Source: a virus. From it: a stretch of 40,271 nt of DNA. Positions 25,018-40,271 of this stretch are shown piece after piece. The notes beneath the pieces are model-generated. The model had not been told where the DNA came from. It saw only the letters and a program-made list of their open reading frames with translations, and did no database searches. The position numbers were made by a program, and so were the translations under genes. Where the stretch lies: positions 1-40,271 of IMG/VR virus record IMGVR_UViG_3300010266_000003; one strand, given 5' to 3'. The first letter of the stretch is position 1. Each line of letters starts with the position of its first letter.

Positions 25018-25314
25018 TCACCCCTCCTTCAGGCCGCTTTTCCACGCCTCAATCGTTTTGCGGATGTCTTTCGTGGAATTAAGTTCCAAATATGTCGCAA
25101 TGAACTGGATACACTCCACCGCCGCATCCCTCTCCCGCTTCGCTTGCTCCAGCTCGGCCCGGAGCGCGGAGAGCGCGGCGGCGGCATCCGCCGTCATGCG
25201 CGGGATGCATCTGCTCATATCCCCGCCCGCATAGTAAGCGCAATTTCTGCACTGCCGGACGTCTGGCTGACTCCCGCACAGCCTTATGGCCTCAATCAGC
25301 TTATCAATATCCAC
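25018..25314 (-). CDS. Hypothetical protein
   Basis: 98-aa ORF in the operon, containing the CRNCAYY...C motif. Confidence 0.6.
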   Translation of the reverse strand: MDIDKLIEAIRLCGSQPDVRQCRNCAYYAGGDMSRCIPRMTADAAAALSALRAELEQAKRERDAAVECIQFIATYLELNSTKDIRKTIEAWKSGLKEG

Positions 25315-26140
25315 TATGTTTCTCCTCCATGATTGTCATCTGCTCAAACGGCGGATCATAGTTCAGCCAAATGGTCTCCTCCGCCATCGCCGTGGATGTC
25401 GTTTGTGACATCGTAGTAAATCTGTGCCACCCCTGCAGGGCGTTGTCATATAGCTCCGACCGATACCCTGACAGGACGATACTTGCCTTGCTCCGCGTGA
25501 TAAGCTCCAGCAAGCGGATATGTGCAGCGTCATCCATCTCATGGCGGTACAGTTTTCCGCTTTTCCTGGCGCTAAGCACATAAGGCGGGTCTAAATACAT
25601 CAGCACATCCTTGTTGTCATACTGCTCGATCAGACGCAGCGCATCCATGTGCTCGATCTGGACCAGGTTGGTTGTGCTGCCTCTCAGCCGGGCTGTAGCT
25701 GCTTCGATGTTGTCTGTAATTCCGGCCCACTTACAGGCTGTCCCGCCGATTCGCATTTGCTTGTGATTTCTCCACCCACATTTTCCATTTAATTTTGCCC
25801 CGATTGCCTGTGTGGTCCTGACTATGTACCTCCGCGCCTGTTCCAGCGGATCCTTACACGGCTCAAACGATAGATCATATTCCTCCCGGCTATATGGTGT
25901 AAGTTCCAGTTGCCGTTTTAGATCTTCCGGTTGATCTCGCAAGACGCAGAACAGATTCACAACGTCGCCATCCAAGTCATTAATCGTTTCTACCGCACTA
26001 GGACGCTTTCTGAAGAACACCGCCGCAGATCCGCTGAACGGCTCTACATACACCAATTTTTCATAATCTCCCGGGAAATGCGAAATGATCCAGTCCGCCG
26101 TGCCCCATTTTGATCCTGGATAACGAATAATCGCTTTCAC
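25304..26140 (-). CDS. dam: DNA N6-adenine methyltransferase (Dam/D12 class)
   Basis: 278 aa. N-terminus is IRYPGSKW...YVEPFSGSAAVFF, and the catalytic motif is YLDPPY. The GTG start overlaps the upstream stop. Confidence 0.9.
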   Translation of the reverse strand: MKAIIRYPGSKWGTADWIISHFPGDYEKLVYVEPFSGSAAVFFRKRPSAVETINDLDGDVVNLFCVLRDQPEDLKRQLELTPYSREEYDLSFEPCKDPLEQARRYIVRTTQAIGAKLNGKCGWRNHKQMRIGGTACKWAGITDNIEAATARLRGSTTNLVQIEHMDALRLIEQYDNKDVLMYLDPPYVLSARKSGKLYRHEMDDAAHIRLLELITRSKASIVLSGYRSELYDNALQGWHRFTTMSQTTSTAMAEETIWLNYDPPFEQMTIMEEKHSGY

Positions 26141-26439: not shown

Positions 26440-26591
26440 TACTCGTCCCTCTTGGCATGGGCGGCATACCCCACCACCATGCGCGTTTGCCCGCATTGAT
26501 CGCATTTTCCCTTGTCCGGGCCGGTCAGCTCGTCCAATTTGTACGCATCCTTCGCCTTTTCTGCGCAGGCATAGCAGAGCTTAATTTTCAT
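26439..26591 (-). CDS. Small Cys-containing hypothetical protein
   Basis: Translated by hand as MKIKLCYACAEKAKDAYKLDELTGPDKGKCDQCGQTRMVVGYAAHAKRDE (50 aa). It has ATGA overlap with the RusA stop and TAATG overlap with the next gene. Confidence 0.5.
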   Translation of the reverse strand: MKIKLCYACAEKAKDAYKLDELTGPDKGKCDQCGQTRMVVGYAAHAKRDE

Positions 26592-26995
26592 TTTGCGCCC
26601 CCTGACAGCTCAGCAATCGAGATATAGATCCCAGGTACTTCCGCCCAAAACTTCTCTGCGATCATAGATGCGACCTGTGCATCGTCCCTCCAAAAGCCCA
26701 CCGCCGTCATACAATCCATCAGCAGCTTTTGGATATTGTCCACGTCAGGCTTTGAGGTCCGGTACTCCCCATCCGCATGGTCTCCGCGCGGGAAGCACCA
26801 CTTCACCAGCAGCCGGATTCCCCCCTCCAGGGGCCGCTCCGGCTTATGTCCGGCCAGGTGGTCCATCAGCTTTGACCGAGCCGCCTTTACTTCATCCGGT
26901 TCATAGGGTACCGGCTTACCATTGACCACCCGCCACTTCTTTTCCTGGTGTGTGGCGGTGGGCGGGATCATCGGTATGAAAAACTCAAGCTTCAT
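26588..26995 (-). CDS. rusA: RusA-family Holliday junction resolvase
   Basis: ATG 26995 begins MKLEFFIPMIPPTATHQEKKWRV...RTSKPDVDNIQKLLMDCMTAVGFWRDDAQV. Confidence 0.8.
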   Translation of the reverse strand: MKLEFFIPMIPPTATHQEKKWRVVNGKPVPYEPDEVKAARSKLMDHLAGHKPERPLEGGIRLLVKWCFPRGDHADGEYRTSKPDVDNIQKLLMDCMTAVGFWRDDAQVASMIAEKFWAEVPGIYISIAELSGGAK

Positions 26996-27218
26996 AGTCC
27001 ACACCTCTCCAGGCACGGGTCTCTGGGTCAAATTTGATATACCCAATTTCCCTCAGAAGGTCCACCAGGTACGCGGCTAGATCCGTGTTGCATTTCACCC
27101 AATCAAGCACACGGTCACCCTGAACCGAGTATTCTCCACCAATCGCCTTTCTCTTCAAGGGTGGCATCTTTTTCGCTACGTTCAATCGCACGTCGCGTTG
27201 TCGCGTTCGCTCTTTCAC
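26985..27218 (-). CDS. Hypothetical protein
   Basis: 77-aa ORF with a GTG start after GAGG. It is the first gene after the structured spacer. Confidence 0.5.
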   Translation of the reverse strand: MKERTRQRDVRLNVAKKMPPLKRKAIGGEYSVQGDRVLDWVKCNTDLAAYLVDLLREIGYIKFDPETRAWRGVDYEA

Positions 27219-34256: not shown

Positions 34257-34712
34257 TTATGCCGGCTCCGTCAATTTTTCGATCATCTCCCGCCAGTTTG
34301 GGGGCGGTTTGATGGTCTCCCAGCGGCACACCGTGGACTGGTCCACCCCAAGCAGCTCGGCAGCCTCCCTTTGCGTCAGCCCCAGAGCAATACGAGCGTC
34401 ACGCAGCTCGCGCTTGCCCTCGGCGATCTCCTCCCTGTGGGCCTCGTAGTACCGGCGCTGGGCCTCGGCGATCTCCTCCCTGTGGGCCTCGCGGTACCGG
34501 CGCTGGGCCTCGGCGATCTCCTCCCTGTGGGCCTCGCGGTACCGGCGCTGGGCCTCGGCGATCCGCTTTTGCTTTGAGTCCATGCGGCCCAGGATGGCCT
34601 CCCGATCAATGAGCCGCCCAAGCGCAATGTCGGCATTTGTAACACAAAATGTAGACTCGATCTCTGCGTCGGCACGGGCCATTTCTGCCAGCTCTGCAGG
34701 GGTGAATCCCAT
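34257..34712 (-). CDS. HTH (XRE-like) protein with 15-aa tandem repeats
   Basis: ATG 34712 follows AAAGGAGA. The repeats are AQRRYREAHREEIAE, three copies. The C-terminal HTH is LGLTQREAAELLGVDQSTVCRWE. Confidence 0.7.
   Translation of the reverse strand: MGFTPAELAEMARADAEIESTFCVTNADIALGRLIDREAILGRMDSKQKRIAEAQRRYREAHREEIAEAQRRYREAHREEIAEAQRRYYEAHREEIAEGKRELRDARIALGLTQREAAELLGVDQSTVCRWETIKPPPNWREMIEKLTEPA
34418..34564 (-). repeat. 45-bp in-frame tandem repeat, about 3.3 copies
   Basis: The unit is cctcggcgatctcctccctgtgggcctcgcggtaccggcgctggg, starting at 34418, 34463 and 34508, with a partial copy at 34553. Copies 2 and 3 are identical. Copy 1 differs at 2 nt. Confidence 0.9.
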
Positions 34713-34782
34713 TGACAAGTCATCTCCTTTCTGCGCGGCGCTTTTTATGCCGGCTCCGCCTCCGCCCACTTGGCCGACTGGA

Positions 34783-35938: not shown

Positions 35939-35953
35939 TGTCTTTTTAAGACA
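35939..35953. promoter_or_regulatory. Operator-like palindrome TGTCTTTTTAAGACA (distal copy)
   Basis: This 15-mer is identical to 36188-36202. It overlaps the stop codon of the cro-like gene. Confidence 0.55.
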
Positions 35954-36164
35954 TTTTTAGATTAAAAAAAATAGCGTCTGTTTCTCGCGCCGAGAGGCCA
36001 TATCTCCTTTTGATAAAAGCGATCTCAGTCTGCTTGAACTCCGCTCCGCCGGATTCGTTTATCTTTGCATTAAGCCTTGAAAGGCTTATGCCAAGGTAAT
36101 TTGCAAGGTCTTCCTGCGTGTCGGAATGTTTGGCCATATGAGATCTGAGCAATGCCTTGTCCAT
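35946..36164 (-). CDS. Cro-like HTH early regulator
   Basis: 72 aa with RBS GGAGGTGA. The HTH is DTQEDLANYLGISLSRLNAKINE. It is divergent from the repressor gene. Confidence 0.7.
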   Translation of the reverse strand: MDKALLRSHMAKHSDTQEDLANYLGISLSRLNAKINESGGAEFKQTEIAFIKRRYGLSARETDAIFFNLKMS

Positions 36165-36246: not shown

Positions 36247-36275
36247 TTGATTTTTTTTAAAAATTATAGTATAAT
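36247..36275 (+). promoter_or_regulatory. Repressor promoter: TTGATT - 17 bp - TATAAT
   Basis: On the plus strand the -35 is at 36247-36252 and the -10 at 36270-36275, 30 nt upstream of ATG 36305. The 11-mer ATAGTATAATC occurs twice (36206 and 36266). Confidence 0.6.
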
Positions 36276-36304: not shown

Positions 36305-36652
36305 ATGACAACCGGAGAAAGAATCAAAGGGCTCAGGCAGGAACTCGGAATGTCTCAGGCAGAACTGGGAGAGAAAATTGGCGTCAAAACCCCTGCTATC
36401 TATAAATATGAAAACGGGCTTGTCGTTAACTTAAAGCGATCAACAATAGAAAAACTAGCTACAGCACTAAATGTGTCTCCATCGTATTTAATGGGGTTTG
36501 ACGGAGAAGAAAAGCCCCTCACCGTTTCCGATGAGGGGCTAAACGAAGTCACTTCGATTTTTGAGCGGCTATCTCCAGATAACCGAGCCAAACTTCTCGA
36601 ACTGTCTCGCCTTTACCTAGACGCTCAGAACAAAAACGAAGGAAAGAAATAA
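36305..36652 (+). CDS. CI-like XRE-family repressor
   Basis: 115 aa. Sequence is MTTGERIKGLRQELGMSQAELGEKIGVKTPAIYKYENG...LATALNVSPSYLMG. It is divergent from the cro-like gene. Confidence 0.8.
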   Translation: MTTGERIKGLRQELGMSQAELGEKIGVKTPAIYKYENGLVVNLKRSTIEKLATALNVSPSYLMGFDGEEKPLTVSDEGLNEVTSIFERLSPDNRAKLLELSRLYLDAQNKNEGKK

Positions 36653-36908
36653 AATCATCCTTGTCTTTTGCTTGGTCATACAGTTTTATGGCGGAGTCGT
36701 CGCTTGGCATAAGTATTCCCCTTTCCCAGGGGCGCGCCTCACTGTTTTGAGCTCTTCCTAATTTTACCACATAGCACTTATTTTTGTCACTGGTAATTCT
36801 TTCCTCCATCGCGCCCTCCGATCTCCCGCAGCCCTTGTCAGTGACTTCATAATAGTACGTTTGTTCTATCTGGTCAAGCCGGAAAAGTTGCCAAATTTCA
36901 ACGTGCAT
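36549..36908 (-). CDS. Uncertain ORF convergent with and overlapping the repressor gene
   Basis: 119-aa ORF in AT-richer DNA with no good RBS at 36908. A better RBS (GGAGGG) precedes the internal ATG at 36809. It overlaps the 3' end of the repressor gene by 104 nt. I recognised no family. Confidence 0.3.
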   Translation of the reverse strand: MHVEIWQLFRLDQIEQTYYYEVTDKGCGRSEGAMEERITSDKNKCYVVKLGRAQNSEARPWERGILMPSDDSAIKLYDQAKDKDDFISFLRFCSERLGKGETVREVWLGYLEIAAQKSK

Positions 36909-37056
36909 TTTCTGCGTTTTAACAGGAGGTGAGAGACGGAATAGTCCGGATTATGGGACACGTGGAATGATATCGTTACCCAGCTGCCGAAGAATGTGGT
37001 GTCGAAAATAAGCCGCTCAAAAGTTACGCAATAATAGAACGCGAGGGGAGAATACT

Positions 37057-38352
37057 ATGGGTATCGGCGACATTTTTAAAGCGAGTGAAAATCAGCAATT
37101 GCGGCAACGAATCTCCGAACTCGAGTCCCTTATAACCCCCGAGATGAAGGACATAAGTACTGCACGTCAGCGCCTTGATGCGCTCCAGCAGGAAATATCT
37201 CTCCAAGAAGTTAAAGCGTTAGGCTTAGAAGCTGACCTAAGCCGAATACAGTCGGAAATTGACCTTGCTAAGAAGAATTTGATTGAAACAAATGACGCCG
37301 TTCTTCTTCAAGAGTTTGGTCTGTATGAGCCGGTTTATGCCTTCGCTACCTCTGACCTATACAAAACCCGACTGCTTGAAATAAGATCAGCGCAAAAAGA
37401 AATGATAAAGAATAAACAGGCTGCTACGGGTTTTACCAATTGGACGGTAAACAACAATGCCGCCAAAGGGCGAAAAATGGTCTCTGATATGCAAAAGCTA
37501 CTGATTCGCGCTTTTAATAGTGAATGCGATGAGGTGATTGGTAATATCAAATTCAACAATATAGAGTCTGGTATAAAAAGAATTACCACCTCGCGAGATG
37601 CTATTTCAAAGCTCGGCGACATAATGGGCGTTAGCATTACGCCAAAATATTATAAATCCAAGCTTGACGAGCTTCACCTTGCATATGAATATCAGGTAAA
37701 AAAGCAAGAGGAAAAAGAAGAGCAGCGACGTATACGCGAGGAGTTGAGAGAACAGGCAAAACTCCAAAAGGAACTTGAAGAAGCCCGTAAGAAAATTGTA
37801 AAAGACCGTCAGCATTATGAAAATGCTCTTAAACAAGCCAGAGAACGGTTAGACACAGAACTCAACGAGGCAACCAAAGCAGATCTACTTGAGAAGATAG
37901 AGGCGTTTGAGAGACAGCTCGAAAAGCTTGATAAGGACCTAAAGGATGTGGACTATAGGGAAGCAAACCAAAAAGCTGGGTACGTGTACATCATATCTAA
38001 CATCGGAGCCTTTGGAAATGATATTTTTAAAATTGGGATGACAAGACGATTGGACCCAATGGACAGGATAGACGAACTTGGCGACGCTTCTGTGCCATTT
38101 AAATTCGATGTGCATGCAATGATTTTTACTGAGGATGCCCCCAAATTGGAATCGGCGCTCCATCACGCTTTTGAATCTAGAAAAGTTAATATGGTAAACA
38201 ATAGACGCGAATTTTTCAGGGTATCTCTTGACGAAATAAAGAAGGTCATTCAAGAAAACTTTGATAAATCTGTTGAGTTTGTCGATTCACCATACGCGGA
38301 GCAGTATAGGCAGTCTCTTTTAATCCAGAAACAGCTCTCAAAATCGGGATAA
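37057..38352 (+). CDS. Coiled-coil + DUF4041-like + T5orf172 (GIY-YIG superfamily) nuclease-like protein
   Basis: 431 aa with RBS GAGGGGAG. Central block: FGLYEPVYAFATSDLYKTRLLEIRSAQKEMIKNKQA...LLIRAFNSECD. C-terminal block: GYVYIISNIGAFGNDIFKIGMTRRLDPMDRIDELGDASVPFKFDVHAMIF...NRREFF. Sampled lines are about 35-40% GC. Confidence 0.8.
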   Translation: MGIGDIFKASENQQLRQRISELESLITPEMKDISTARQRLDALQQEISLQEVKALGLEADLSRIQSEIDLAKKNLIETNDAVLLQEFGLYEPVYAFATSDLYKTRLLEIRSAQKEMIKNKQAATGFTNWTVNNNAAKGRKMVSDMQKLLIRAFNSECDEVIGNIKFNNIESGIKRITTSRDAISKLGDIMGVSITPKYYKSKLDELHLAYEYQVKKQEEKEEQRRIREELREQAKLQKELEEARKKIVKDRQHYENALKQARERLDTELNEATKADLLEKIEAFERQLEKLDKDLKDVDYREANQKAGYVYIISNIGAFGNDIFKIGMTRRLDPMDRIDELGDASVPFKFDVHAMIFTEDAPKLESALHHAFESRKVNMVNNRREFFRVSLDEIKKVIQENFDKSVEFVDSPYAEQYRQSLLIQKQLSKSG

Positions 38353-38357
38353 AAAAT

Positions 38358-38390
38358 GCCTCCCACGGTACTCGCAATACCGTGGGAGGC
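38358..38390. terminator. Perfect 13-bp hairpin after the nuclease-like gene
   Basis: GCCTCCCACGGTA-ctcgcaa-TACCGTGGGAGGC. An A-tract lies upstream on the plus strand, so the U-tract falls on the minus-strand transcript. Confidence 0.5.
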
Positions 38391-38455
38391 GGGAAGGTGT
38401 AGACCACAGAGCGGCGGCTACCCTTCTATTTTATCGGAATAGGAGGATTTTGTCA

Positions 38456-40033
38456 ATGCGCAGGGCTGCAATATATGCACGGTACTCAAGCGACCTCCAA
38501 CGCAGCGAATCCATCGATGCGCAAATTCGAGCGTGTAAATATTATGCGCAGCGCTTTGATCTGGAGGTCGTGCGTATCTATGCTGATGCCGCCAAATCCG
38601 GCAAGAGCACAAAAAAGCGTGAAGATTTCCTAGATATGATGGAGGATGCCGCTCGGGATATCTTTGACGTACTGTTGGTACACAAACTTAGCCGATTCTC
38701 GCGCCGAGGCACCGATACCCTGAACAACAAGGAGAGGCTGGACTCGTTAGGCGTGGAGCTTATCTCTGTCACGGAGCGTCTTGACGACACTCCAGAAGGT
38801 CGCCTTATGCTCTATGTCATTACTGGCATGAATGAGTTCTACTCTGCGAACCTCGCCGCCGAAACTATGAAAGGGCTCCGCGAAAACGCGTATAACGGGA
38901 AGCACACCGGCGGTCTCCCCCCTCTGGGGTACGATGTTGACCCGGTTACGAAGAAACTAACAATCAATCCGTCCGAGGCGGAAGCTGTGCGCATGATATT
39001 CTCCATGTACCTGTCTGGTTGTGGATACGGTGAGATTGTAGACACACTAAATGCGCATGGATACCTCACCAAACGAGGTGCGCCATTTGGGCGGAACTCG
39101 ATCCATGATATTTTGGTCAACGAAAAGTATACCGGCTTGCTGACCTATGACAAAATCGCCTCAAAAACTCCGGATGGGAGAATGAACCGGCGCAAGTTCA
39201 AGGCTGAATACTTAAAAATCGAGGATGGATGCCCGCAAATTATTACCAAAGAGGACTTCGAAAGGGTGAAGGAAACAATGGCGCAGAATAAGCGTGCCCC
39301 GAAGACTACGGCGGTTGAGAATTATCTGCTTTCTGGGAAACTTTTCTGCGGAGAATGCGGTGCCAGGATGTGCGGAGAGCGTCATAAGGTCCGGGACACT
39401 GCATACTCCTATTACATCTGTAACGAGGGAAAGCGCTGTAAAACTCATCGCCTGTCCGTCCGAAAAGAGATCGTAGAGAATATGGTCTTTGATGCACTCA
39501 ACAGGATGGTGCTCTCAGAAGCGTCGGTGGATGCCATAGCTCATGCAGCCGTTGGAAGCTATGAGACCCAGAAGCACGCCGCTGACACCCTGGAAGCTGA
39601 GATTGCAGAATGCGAAGTCAAAATAGCGAACCTGGTAAAAGCCATTGCTACTGGCCTTGATGAACCAGAGTTACGGGAAGAAATGGCGCGGTTGAAGCAG
39701 CGCAAGGCAGAATGTCATGCCATGATGGAAACCCTTCGGGATAATGCGGATCAGCGCAAAAGTGTGGCGGAGTGGAAGGCCTATTTGCGACGCTTCTGTG
39801 ATATAAACGCCTTGCCCGATGAGGATAAGAAAGCGTTGATCGCTGTTTTTGTAGATCGGATTCTTCTGTTTCCAGATGGCGGCCCAGGCCCAAAGGGCAC
39901 ATATAGAATTGAGGTGGAGCTCAACCCCAATCATGTTGAGCCTAGGGAAGGCAACGGCCTCCCGCTGCCAGAAAACCCACAAATAACAGTATTTAAAAAC
40001 GGTTTTGTGGTATTGAATGGCAGAGGCAATTAG
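38456..40033 (+). CDS. Large serine recombinase (integrase)
   Basis: ATG 38456 follows GGAGGA. The resolvase-type N-terminus is MRRAAIYARYSSDLQ...VLLVHKLSRFSRR. It also has a recombinase domain, the zinc-ribbon-like motif CGECGARMCGERH...YYICNEGKRC, and a C-terminal coiled coil. Confidence 0.9.
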   Translation: MRRAAIYARYSSDLQRSESIDAQIRACKYYAQRFDLEVVRIYADAAKSGKSTKKREDFLDMMEDAARDIFDVLLVHKLSRFSRRGTDTLNNKERLDSLGVELISVTERLDDTPEGRLMLYVITGMNEFYSANLAAETMKGLRENAYNGKHTGGLPPLGYDVDPVTKKLTINPSEAEAVRMIFSMYLSGCGYGEIVDTLNAHGYLTKRGAPFGRNSIHDILVNEKYTGLLTYDKIASKTPDGRMNRRKFKAEYLKIEDGCPQIITKEDFERVKETMAQNKRAPKTTAVENYLLSGKLFCGECGARMCGERHKVRDTAYSYYICNEGKRCKTHRLSVRKEIVENMVFDALNRMVLSEASVDAIAHAAVGSYETQKHAADTLEAEIAECEVKIANLVKAIATGLDEPELREEMARLKQRKAECHAMMETLRDNADQRKSVAEWKAYLRRFCDINALPDEDKKALIAVFVDRILLFPDGGPGPKGTYRIEVELNPNHVEPREGNGLPLPENPQITVFKNGFVVLNGRGN

Positions 40034-40108: not shown

Positions 40109-40271
40109 CTATCTCACGATCTGTGCCGCAAGGAATCCCACAGCGCCCGAGACGGCCAGCCAAATGAGCTTGTCCACGATACCGTCCCAGCGCTTGGCGG
40201 GCTTCTCGGTGAGGGCCTTCACGTCGGTCTTGATCTCCTTCACGTCGGTCTCCACCGTCTCCTGCCGTGTC
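40109..40271 (-). CDS. XhlA-like protein, 3' part (duplicated overlap plus unique C-terminus)
   Basis: The same frame as 1-250 ends ...IWLAVSGAVGFLAAQIVR with TAG at 40111-40109. The C-terminal segment is hydrophobic. Confidence 0.7.
   Translation of the reverse strand, partial: TRQETVETDVKEIKTDVKALTEKPAKRWDGIVDKLIWLAVSGAVGFLAAQIVR
40153..40271 (+). repeat. Terminal direct repeat copy 2 (circularisation overlap)
   Basis: Identical to 1-119. Confidence 0.9.

Follow-up and report, generated by a model that had tools for sequence, protein, structure and literature searches.

A SNIPE (PD-λ-1) family gene without a transmembrane helix in the lysogeny module of a temperate phage of gut Clostridia

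Results

The gene and its protein family

The stretch of DNA analysed here (the window) comprises 40,271 nt of one strand, positions 1-40,271 of IMG/VR record IMGVR_UViG_3300010266_000003. Between a candidate repressor and the integrase lies a plus-strand gene that, as judged by profile and alignment evidence, is a clear member of the SNIPE (PD-λ-1) family of anti-phage nucleases, i.e., a known kind of defence gene, and that belongs to the subtype without a transmembrane (TM) helix. A first-pass annotation, made from the sequence alone, had proposed for this place a single-gene anti-phage nuclease of the DUF4041 plus GIY-YIG type, and our analysis supports that interpretation in substance. The features of the gene and of its product are listed below, with residues counted in amino acids (aa).

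37043-37050, plus strand: ribosome-binding site GAGGGGAG, 6 nt before the ATG of the SNIPE gene, read from the sequence
37057-38352, plus strand: SNIPE / PD-λ-1 family gene, TM-less subtype; open reading frame (ORF) of 431 aa with ATG start
37057-37092, plus strand: conserved N-terminal peptide MGIGDIFKASEN (aa 1-12), by its conservation a candidate membrane-targeting or docking motif
37093-37314, plus strand: N-terminal coiled-coil region (aa 13-86), from AlphaFold2 helices
37315-37701, plus strand: DUF4041 structured region (aa 87-215), with the part covered by the Pfam model (aa 147-202) at 37495-37662
37642-37965, plus strand: long charged alpha-helical linker (aa 196-303), from AlphaFold2, aligning with the linker of Escherichia coli SNIPE
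37978-38253, plus strand: GIY-YIG (T5orf172/MUG113) nuclease domain (aa 308-399), from Pfam
38149-38151, plus strand: codon GAA of the predicted catalytic Glu E365, by alignment to E414 of E. coli SNIPE
38358-38370 / 38378-38390: hairpin after the stop codon of the SNIPE gene, a 13-bp perfect inverted repeat with a 7-nt loop

PADLOC, one of the checks that the first-pass annotation had proposed, matched protein residues 12-428 to positions 67-477 of 491 of its PD-Lambda-1 model PDLC03976 (E=1.6e-156, 520 bits), and a further PD-Lambda-1 hidden Markov model, PDLC03977, matched with E=4e-147; experiments on the family have shown it to be a single-gene nuclease that acts on incoming phage DNA (PMC13190303). 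PHROG 1847, a family of unknown function, also matches the protein (E=3.7e-152), and NCBIfam gave no meaningful match. Pfam DUF4041 (PF13250), which carries the label 'SNIPE' in precomputed Pfam labels, covers aa 147-202 with all 56 model positions (E=1.8e-20, 73 bits against a cut-off of 27). The C-terminal block that had been read as T5orf172/MUG113-type GIY-YIG is matched by MUG113 at aa 324-399 (E=3.9e-19) and T5orf172 at aa 308-399 (E=4.4e-18). All three Pfam families exceed their curated cut-offs, and the DUF4041 and T5orf172 matches, whose absence had been set beforehand as evidence against a nuclease defence, are both strong. The block beginning FGLYEP, which the first-pass annotation had recognised as DUF4041-like, lies upstream of the 56-residue Pfam model and in this narrow sense was misplaced; it does belong to the conserved core of the family, in which Q85, G88, Y90 and P92 are invariant.

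The protein shares 42% identity over aa 82-431 with the product of a gene annotated PD-lambda-1 in E. coli phage PhiR26_1, which itself has nine of the nine residues of the SNIPE paper (E223, N250, L253, W257, E264, K305, I308, T319 and E414). The catalytic E414 of E. coli SNIPE aligns to E365 of the present protein. In the GIY-YIG domain Y309, Y311, K325, G327, R330, R331, E365, N378 and N381 are invariant in 62 sequences. The order of parts in the AlphaFold2 model is an N-terminal helical region, a confident DUF4041 region, two long linker helices and a small alpha/beta C-terminal domain, with a mean predicted local distance difference test (pLDDT) of 77.6 and values of ~87-92 over aa 100-210. 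Both the N-terminal coiled coil (helices 4-24 and 28-78) and the long charged helix (helices 196-267 and 271-303) of the first-pass annotation are found in this model. A Foldseek search with the C-terminal domain ranked the GIY-YIG nucleases Slx1 and HIGLE first (probability 0.7-0.9, E 0.08-0.5). With the whole chain, Foldseek against the PDB gave coiled-coil matches only, none at E<=0.001, and a sequence profile search of the PDB gave coiled-coil noise only, the best match being the P22 tail needle gp26 (E=0.052).

Two other kinds of protein share the nuclease part. Stand-alone T5orf172/MUG113 proteins and the PADLOC candidate PDC-S57 (E=4.6e-20 over aa 305-400) are alike in their C-terminal T5orf172-type GIY-YIG domain, but they are without DUF4041 and the long helices, and the match is to the nuclease domain only. 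A GIY-YIG homing endonuclease of the I-TevI type was considered and set aside: the nuclease stands C-terminal to DUF4041, the Pfam scan gave no homing DNA-binding domains, and the context is a lysogeny module. Homologues in phage records (e.g., KC348604 phiS10, MF197383 Poushou, OL774867 MismyG and MW221967 PMBT9) are inconsistently named, the names being 'hypothetical', 'putative phage membrane protein', 'ATPase', 'helicase', 'chromosome segregation ATPase' and 'putative regulatory protein'.

Start codon and downstream hairpin

Both the 431-aa ORF and its own ribosome-binding site had been called in the first-pass annotation and are present. An in-frame TAG at 37009-37011 lies upstream of the ATG and the protein therefore cannot have a longer N-terminus. 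Neither a longer, TM-bearing frame nor a pseudogenised TM extension was found upstream, where all three frames are filled with stops and tblastn returned nothing.

The perfect 13-bp hairpin noted earlier behind the gene is present at 38358-38390. Its T-run ATTTTTTATC is on the minus strand and the plus strand is without one, so that the hairpin is not a textbook plus-strand terminator and by consensus is a predicted terminator for leftward transcription. A near-consensus promoter-like site on the minus strand, TTGACA-17-TAAAAT at 38456-38428, points leftward into this hairpin, and the resulting minus-strand unit spans 38348-38456. Site and hairpin together would yield a transcript of ~70 nt or insulate the SNIPE gene from antisense transcription, and may also have arisen by chance.

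Absence of a transmembrane segment

The first-pass annotation had seen no TM segment and had taken this to set the copy apart from membrane-anchored versions, in agreement with our finding that the highest 19-residue Kyte-Doolittle mean of the protein is 0.96, located in the GIY beta-strand. TM residues 6-24 of E. coli SNIPE have a mean of 3.37. The first ~66 positions of the PADLOC PD-Lambda-1 model are unmatched by the protein. TM-like N-termini occur in only 8 of the 120 closest homologues, and of 118 close homologues with an N-terminal region, 110 agree with the present protein in being TM-less and in where they start. Six of the eight close relatives that do bear TM helices have a TM module of one or two helices directly ahead of the peptide MG[IL]GD[IL]FKA; such a module is fused before the peptide in P0015, P0037, P0058, P0063, P0068 and P0070, and the internal Met is kept in some. 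To judge from these sequences, the close relatives look like a case of repeated recent gain of membrane anchors, and the kept internal Met leaves room for internal initiation, which may make both TM and TM-less forms.

A neighbouring small membrane protein that could serve as an anchor in trans had no consistent representative among 65 TM-less genomic loci, in which mechanical ORF calls placed a small TM ORF upstream in nine and downstream in nine. Pfam returned generic coiled-coil noise only for the N-terminal coiled-coil region of the present protein. When DivIVA, PspA, MinE, PH and DUF4428 were looked for in ten N-terminal regions (Pfam, E up to 1), generic coiled-coil families alone appeared, all below gathering scores; homology of the N-terminus to any of these five families was rejected, as no Pfam signal rose above noise.

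A conserved N-terminal peptide

The N-terminal peptide MGIGDIFKASEN contains three large hydrophobic residues (I3, I6, F7) and has a net charge of -1. Within its own clade the majority-residue frequency is 0.81 for aa 1-12 as against 0.40 for aa 30-80 of the coiled coil, and aa 1-12 are as conserved as the catalytic domains. The first helix is followed by a nearly invariant TPE break at aa 27-29, with P28 and E29 at least 90% conserved.

For the wider family we compared 52 full-length TM-less and 77 TM-bearing sequences among 150 representatives from 50%-identity clusters. TM-less homologues often start with M-[GAS]-Φ-x-D-Φ-F-K, examples being MALLDFLKRKEL, MGLFDFFKK and MGIGDIFKA. A looser start, M-[GAS]-[ILF]-[ILFG], is found in 20/52 TM-less and 1/77 TM-bearing representatives (p=1.3e-8) and in 15/487 control ORFs; as this pattern was defined after the sequences had been seen, its p-values are on the optimistic side. 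A stricter one, x-D-Φ-F-[KRHN], was taken from the close clade and applied to the distant representatives, where it is present in 10/52 TM-less and 0/77 TM-bearing sequences. By the looser counts, motif and TM helices are mutually exclusive across the wider family; after a TM helix, the strict motif was observed in 2/79 cases against 1.8 expected by chance.

Lysogeny module and accessory status of the gene

The genes that surround the SNIPE gene are the following.

35946-36164, minus strand: divergent ORF of 72 aa in the Cro position of the switch; role assigned from position, no Pfam match
36305-36652, plus strand: Cro/CI-type helix-turn-helix (HTH) repressor candidate of 115 aa; Pfam HTH_3 with E=1.4e-15, PHROG transcriptional regulator/repressor families
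36549-36908, minus strand: antisense ORF between repressor and SNIPE gene, 119 aa (86 aa by other gene callers), overlapping the 3' end of the repressor gene
38456-40033 (alternative start 38450), plus strand: large serine recombinase (integrase); Pfam Resolvase, Recombinase and Zn_ribbon_recom

The order of the switch is thus the 72-aa ORF (minus), the HTH repressor (plus), the antisense ORF (minus), the SNIPE gene (plus) and the serine integrase (plus), in line with the earlier placement of the gene between repressor and integrase. The SNIPE gene points the same way as repressor and integrase, whereas all lytic genes point the other way. With a repressor, an antisense ORF devoid of a TM segment and an integrase as its neighbours, it stands as a single-gene system. 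L091, a viral contig whose integrase is 68% identical, lacks the SNIPE gene, and a mere 141 nt separate its CI-type repressor from the integrase that follows; the homology of this contig to the window starts at 38428, just beyond the SNIPE hairpin. Because L091 joins repressor and integrase directly, the gene is, on this comparison, accessory cargo at this position, as the first-pass annotation had suggested. The integrase-based search of IMG/VR for SNIPE-less relatives gave this one locus only.

A protein identical to the SNIPE protein (P0001) occurs on 28 contigs. It is present in 68 blocks of the public collection, from which 23 contigs were read, and all eight of the places displayed carry the cassette. 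The cassette is found on phages with differing replication modules and, with the identical gene in it, also in prophages integrated among host genes (L003, L007, L010), whose host neighbours include MerR, an ABC transporter, NUDIX and a sigma-70 family sigma factor. The unit of SNIPE gene and integrase (36699-39975) is 99% identical across phages with different immunity and replication modules, even where the repressor differs (L003, L007). The divergent 72-aa ORF is kept with the cassette in L004-L006 and L008-L010. Homologues of the protein are distributed across Oscillospiraceae, Christensenellaceae and Lachnospiraceae and also occur on contigs assigned to Bacteroidota and in archaeal metagenome-assembled genomes (MAGs); the best match to a species-representative genome is a Christensenellaceae MAG with 71% identity. 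In other Clostridia, genes resembling repressors and serine recombinases are again seen next to more distant homologues.

Integrated copies diverge ~60 nt before the integrase stop, which places the phage attachment site attP within the 3' end of the integrase gene, with the crossover at ~39963-39975, where the integrated copies lose homology. At least two junction sequences exist in integrated copies (L003, L005, L007 and L010 as against L004), and integration alters the C-terminus of the integrase, the called lengths being 505, 525, 530 and 741 aa across loci. The ribosome-binding site of the integrase, GGAGG (38442-38446), is the 3' arm of an 11-pair hairpin at 38422-38446, which by its predicted pairing could limit integrase translation. 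For the repressor candidate, a promoter-like site was read at 36247-36275. The antisense ORF has no match in four libraries and no TM segment as read from its translation; it is accompanied on the minus strand by a promoter-like site at 36877-36849 and, at 36540-36513, by a hairpin that strongly resembles a terminator. The unit 36513-36908 may encode a small protein or give rise to an antisense RNA with a modulating effect on the repressor.

The SNIPE gene has a GC content of 41.7% (GC at third codon positions, 42.1%), above the 35-40% of the hand counts in the first-pass annotation, whose ~62% for the structural genes does fit the measured 60-66%. Positions 1-35500 have 60.6% GC, and the whole lysogeny module (35501 to the end) 46.9%, with 44% in the repressor and 50% in the integrase. 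Low GC as a sign that the SNIPE gene alone is foreign was therefore rejected, as the entire module is low in GC. The host flanks of the integrated copies L003, L007 and L010 have ~50% GC, a value nearer the 47% of the cassette than the 61% of the structural genes. With 57-61% GC in the structural and replication genes, the part that departs from host GC is the GC-rich portion of the phage and not the lysogeny cassette.

The carrier phage

Bases 1-119 of the window are identical to 40153-40271, and this exact 119-bp terminal overlap means that the window is a circularly closed, complete phage genome with ~40,152 bp of unique sequence and not a fragment of a chromosome. The tail is of the myovirus type, with sheath, baseplate wedge and a tape-measure protein of 646 aa, and portal, major head protein and endolysin are also encoded. 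Among the minus-strand genes are a D12-class N6-adenine DNA methyltransferase (25304-26140, E=1.7e-23) with a possible anti-restriction function, a RusA resolvase (26588-27046, E=2.1e-28) and a 170-aa HTH protein (34257-34769), whose translation has three tandem units of ~15 residues (AEAQRRYREAHREEI...) ahead of the HTH domain.

Discussion

Comparison with published SNIPE proteins

A functional screen of E. coli yielded PD-λ-1 (Vassallo et al. 2022, PMC9519451), which was characterised and renamed SNIPE in 2026 (Saxton et al., PMC13190303). SNIPE is a membrane-anchored GIY-YIG nuclease, encoded by a single gene, that cuts phage DNA during injection; its DUF4041 binds DNA and probably tape-measure proteins, and the exchange E414A abolishes defence (PMC13190303). 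The present protein follows E. coli SNIPE in the order of a variable helical region, DUF4041, a long charged helix and a C-terminal GIY-YIG (T5orf172) domain. Both are encoded by single genes on temperate phages, the E. coli-type gene residing in the lambdoid phage PhiR26_1. They differ at the N-terminus, where the peptide MGIGDIFKA and a coiled coil replace the TM helix, and in the positions that tune binding to tape-measure proteins, E223 being aligned to I and W257 to H. The hosts here are gut Clostridia, so that the LamB/ManYZ entry route is not available. The carrier, moreover, is a myovirus, whereas E. coli SNIPE restricted siphoviruses and no myovirus or podovirus of the BASEL set (PMC13190303).

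TM-less forms as such have been reported: the TM helix is absent in 34% and present in 66% of 474 SNIPE homologues (PMC13190303, Extended Data Fig. 10), and these forms were suggested to reach the membrane via DivIVA-like, type III secretion ATPase-like, PH or DUF4428 regions (PMC13190303). The present protein resembles them in having no TM helix, no globular N-terminal domain (cf. Extended Data Fig. 10b of that paper) and a coiled-coil N-terminal region, but none of the membrane regions proposed there is detectable in it by Pfam.

The peptide at its N-terminus recalls two membrane-binding elements. For this comparison we used the full E. coli MinE sequence. The membrane-targeting sequence of MinE (residues 2-12) combines hydrophobic L3, L4, F6, F7 and L8 with basic R10, K11 and K12 (PMC5473585), and helix α0 of PspA/Vipp1 has the motif MGLFDRxxRV and an EDPE linker (PMC13051332). 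The likeness lies in the location at the extreme N-terminus, in the succession of a small and a hydrophobic residue, x, Asp, a hydrophobic residue and Phe, followed by basic residues, and in the conserved TPE break after the first helix in the SNIPE clade, which is comparable to the EDPE linker. It is a likeness of short motifs only, with no profile match to PspA_IM30, MinE or DivIVA, and the SNIPE peptide is less rich in hydrophobic residues and is negatively charged overall. Membership in PspA/Vipp1 (ESCRT-III) or MinE was rejected, as there is no profile similarity beyond the first ~8 residues.

Proposed mode of action

We consider it likely, from homology, that the gene encodes a SNIPE-family defence nuclease carried as accessory cargo by a temperate phage of gut Clostridia and acting as its characterised relatives do. 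The individual steps of such a mechanism, which we infer with regard to expression in the lysogen, localisation, target range and defence activity, are less certain than the identity of the family. By analogy with E. coli SNIPE, a lysogen would make the protein constitutively, and the protein would be inactive while it waits on the cytoplasmic side of the membrane or close to it. Once a foreign tailed phage, in all likelihood a siphovirus, starts to inject its genome, DUF4041 would engage the incoming DNA and the tape-measure or ejection complex, and the C-terminal GIY-YIG domain with its predicted catalytic E365 would then cut the DNA before infection is established. If the siphovirus specificity carries over, the gene might guard the lysogen against other kinds of phages and not against the carrier's own relatives.

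Since the protein has no TM helix, it must be kept off the host chromosome in some other way, and our preferred guess is peripheral binding to the membrane or to a partner through MGIGDIFKA and the coiled coil. That TM-less SNIPEs in general are held at the membrane by an N-terminal amphipathic peptide (M-[GAS]-Φ-x-D-Φ-F-K) on a coiled-coil oligomer, in place of a TM helix, is a tentative idea and on the present evidence a rather doubtful one. It draws on the mutual exclusion of motif and TM helices across the wider family, on a conservation of the motif equal to that of the catalytic domains, and on the addition of TM modules ahead of it in six of the eight TM-bearing forms of the close clade. 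Close-clade forms that do bear a TM helix retain the peptide, which would equally suit a docking role. Were the idea true, attachment by the peptide would be reversible and sensitive to lipid state or curvature, the nuclease could gather where an injecting phage perturbs the membrane, and the tolerance of a nuclease that is lethal when soluble would be explained without a TM helix. The words 'amphipathic', 'peripheral' and 'MinE' and the N-terminal peptide itself are absent from the main text of the SNIPE paper (PMC13190303), so the peptide is the one lead that goes beyond that text, a lead and not a result.

Several observations weigh against our reading of the gene as a lysogen-expressed defence. 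A simple scan of the 148-nt gap ahead of the gene for sigma-70-type promoters on the plus strand gave none, so that its position and orientation are the grounds on which we assume expression in the lysogen, and the hairpin behind the gene is oriented as a terminator of the opposite strand. The structure-prediction check advised in the first-pass annotation did return a small alpha/beta C-terminal domain with GIY-YIG nucleases as the top Foldseek matches, but these matches are statistically non-significant. Deletion of the TM helix makes E. coli SNIPE highly toxic, as it then cuts host DNA (PMC13190303), and a natural TM-less version would therefore need some means of control. Finally, the N-terminal peptide of this protein is only weakly amphipathic (hydrophobic moment 0.50, 83rd percentile of its own 11-mers, shuffle p ~0.06).

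The last two points lend themselves to a different account, in which the protein is a soluble, infection-triggered nuclease of the abortive type that is auto-inhibited in the cytoplasm, is released by a phage component, degrades phage and host DNA and kills the cell. The protein has neither a TM helix nor a neighbouring membrane partner, and its peptide is only weakly amphipathic, as this account would have it; in E. coli, SNIPE(ΔTM) localises to the nucleoid, cuts host DNA and is highly toxic, and an auto-inhibited state was inferred even for membrane-bound SNIPE (PMC13190303). SNIPE is, however, documented as a direct, non-abortive defence (PMC13190303). The peptide is conserved far above the adjacent coiled coil, its mutual exclusion with TM helices is more in keeping with another means of localisation than with a protein that is purely soluble, and the repeated gain of TM modules ahead of the same sequence in close relatives suggests that placement at the membrane is selected. 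We therefore judge a soluble abortive nuclease to be unlikely.

Still less probable is a nuclease that serves the phage's own lytic cycle or competition between phages, by degradation of host or competitor DNA or as a homing-type GIY-YIG enzyme, instead of a defence expressed in the lysogen. T5orf172 and GIY-YIG domains are common in lytic phages and homing endonucleases, homologues stand elsewhere in phage genomes (for example close to replication genes in PhiR26_1 and within the tail gene region in ES18), and expression in the lysogen is assumed; all this would fit such a role. Yet the full-length architecture is that of SNIPE and not of a homing endonuclease, there is no intron or intein context, and the gene runs with repressor and integrase against the lytic genes. 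When the ES18 genome was annotated, its homologue gp19 was flagged as a 'possible moron' that has a putative terminator to itself, and SNIPE leaves an induced resident prophage unaffected (PMC13190303). The missing TM helix and the ~66 unmatched positions at the start of the PADLOC model could also mark a decayed, inactive remnant that has lost its anchor and its function, an explanation to which we give hardly any credence: the ORF is intact and its catalytic residues are invariant, the identical protein recurs in the 68 collection blocks and on several phage backbones, the TM-less form and start are shared by 110 of 118 close homologues with no remnant of a TM segment upstream, and the N-terminal 12 residues are strongly conserved.

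Significance

The SNIPE family is already known and mechanistically understood, and its TM-less subtype has been reported before (PMC13190303). What the present locus adds is that a protein nameless in every collection source searched can be labelled with confidence as a defence nuclease of the SNIPE/PD-λ-1 family, and that temperate phages of gut Clostridia move a unit of SNIPE gene and integrase between backbones. The 99% identity of this unit across backbones indicates active spread of the defence in the guts of humans and animals. Mechanistically, one point is of real interest, the absence of the TM helix, for the TM-less subtype raises the question of how a non-specific nuclease, lethal to E. 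coli in soluble form, avoids the host chromosome without a spanning anchor. For this question of localisation, the conserved N-terminal peptide offers a concrete mutational handle.

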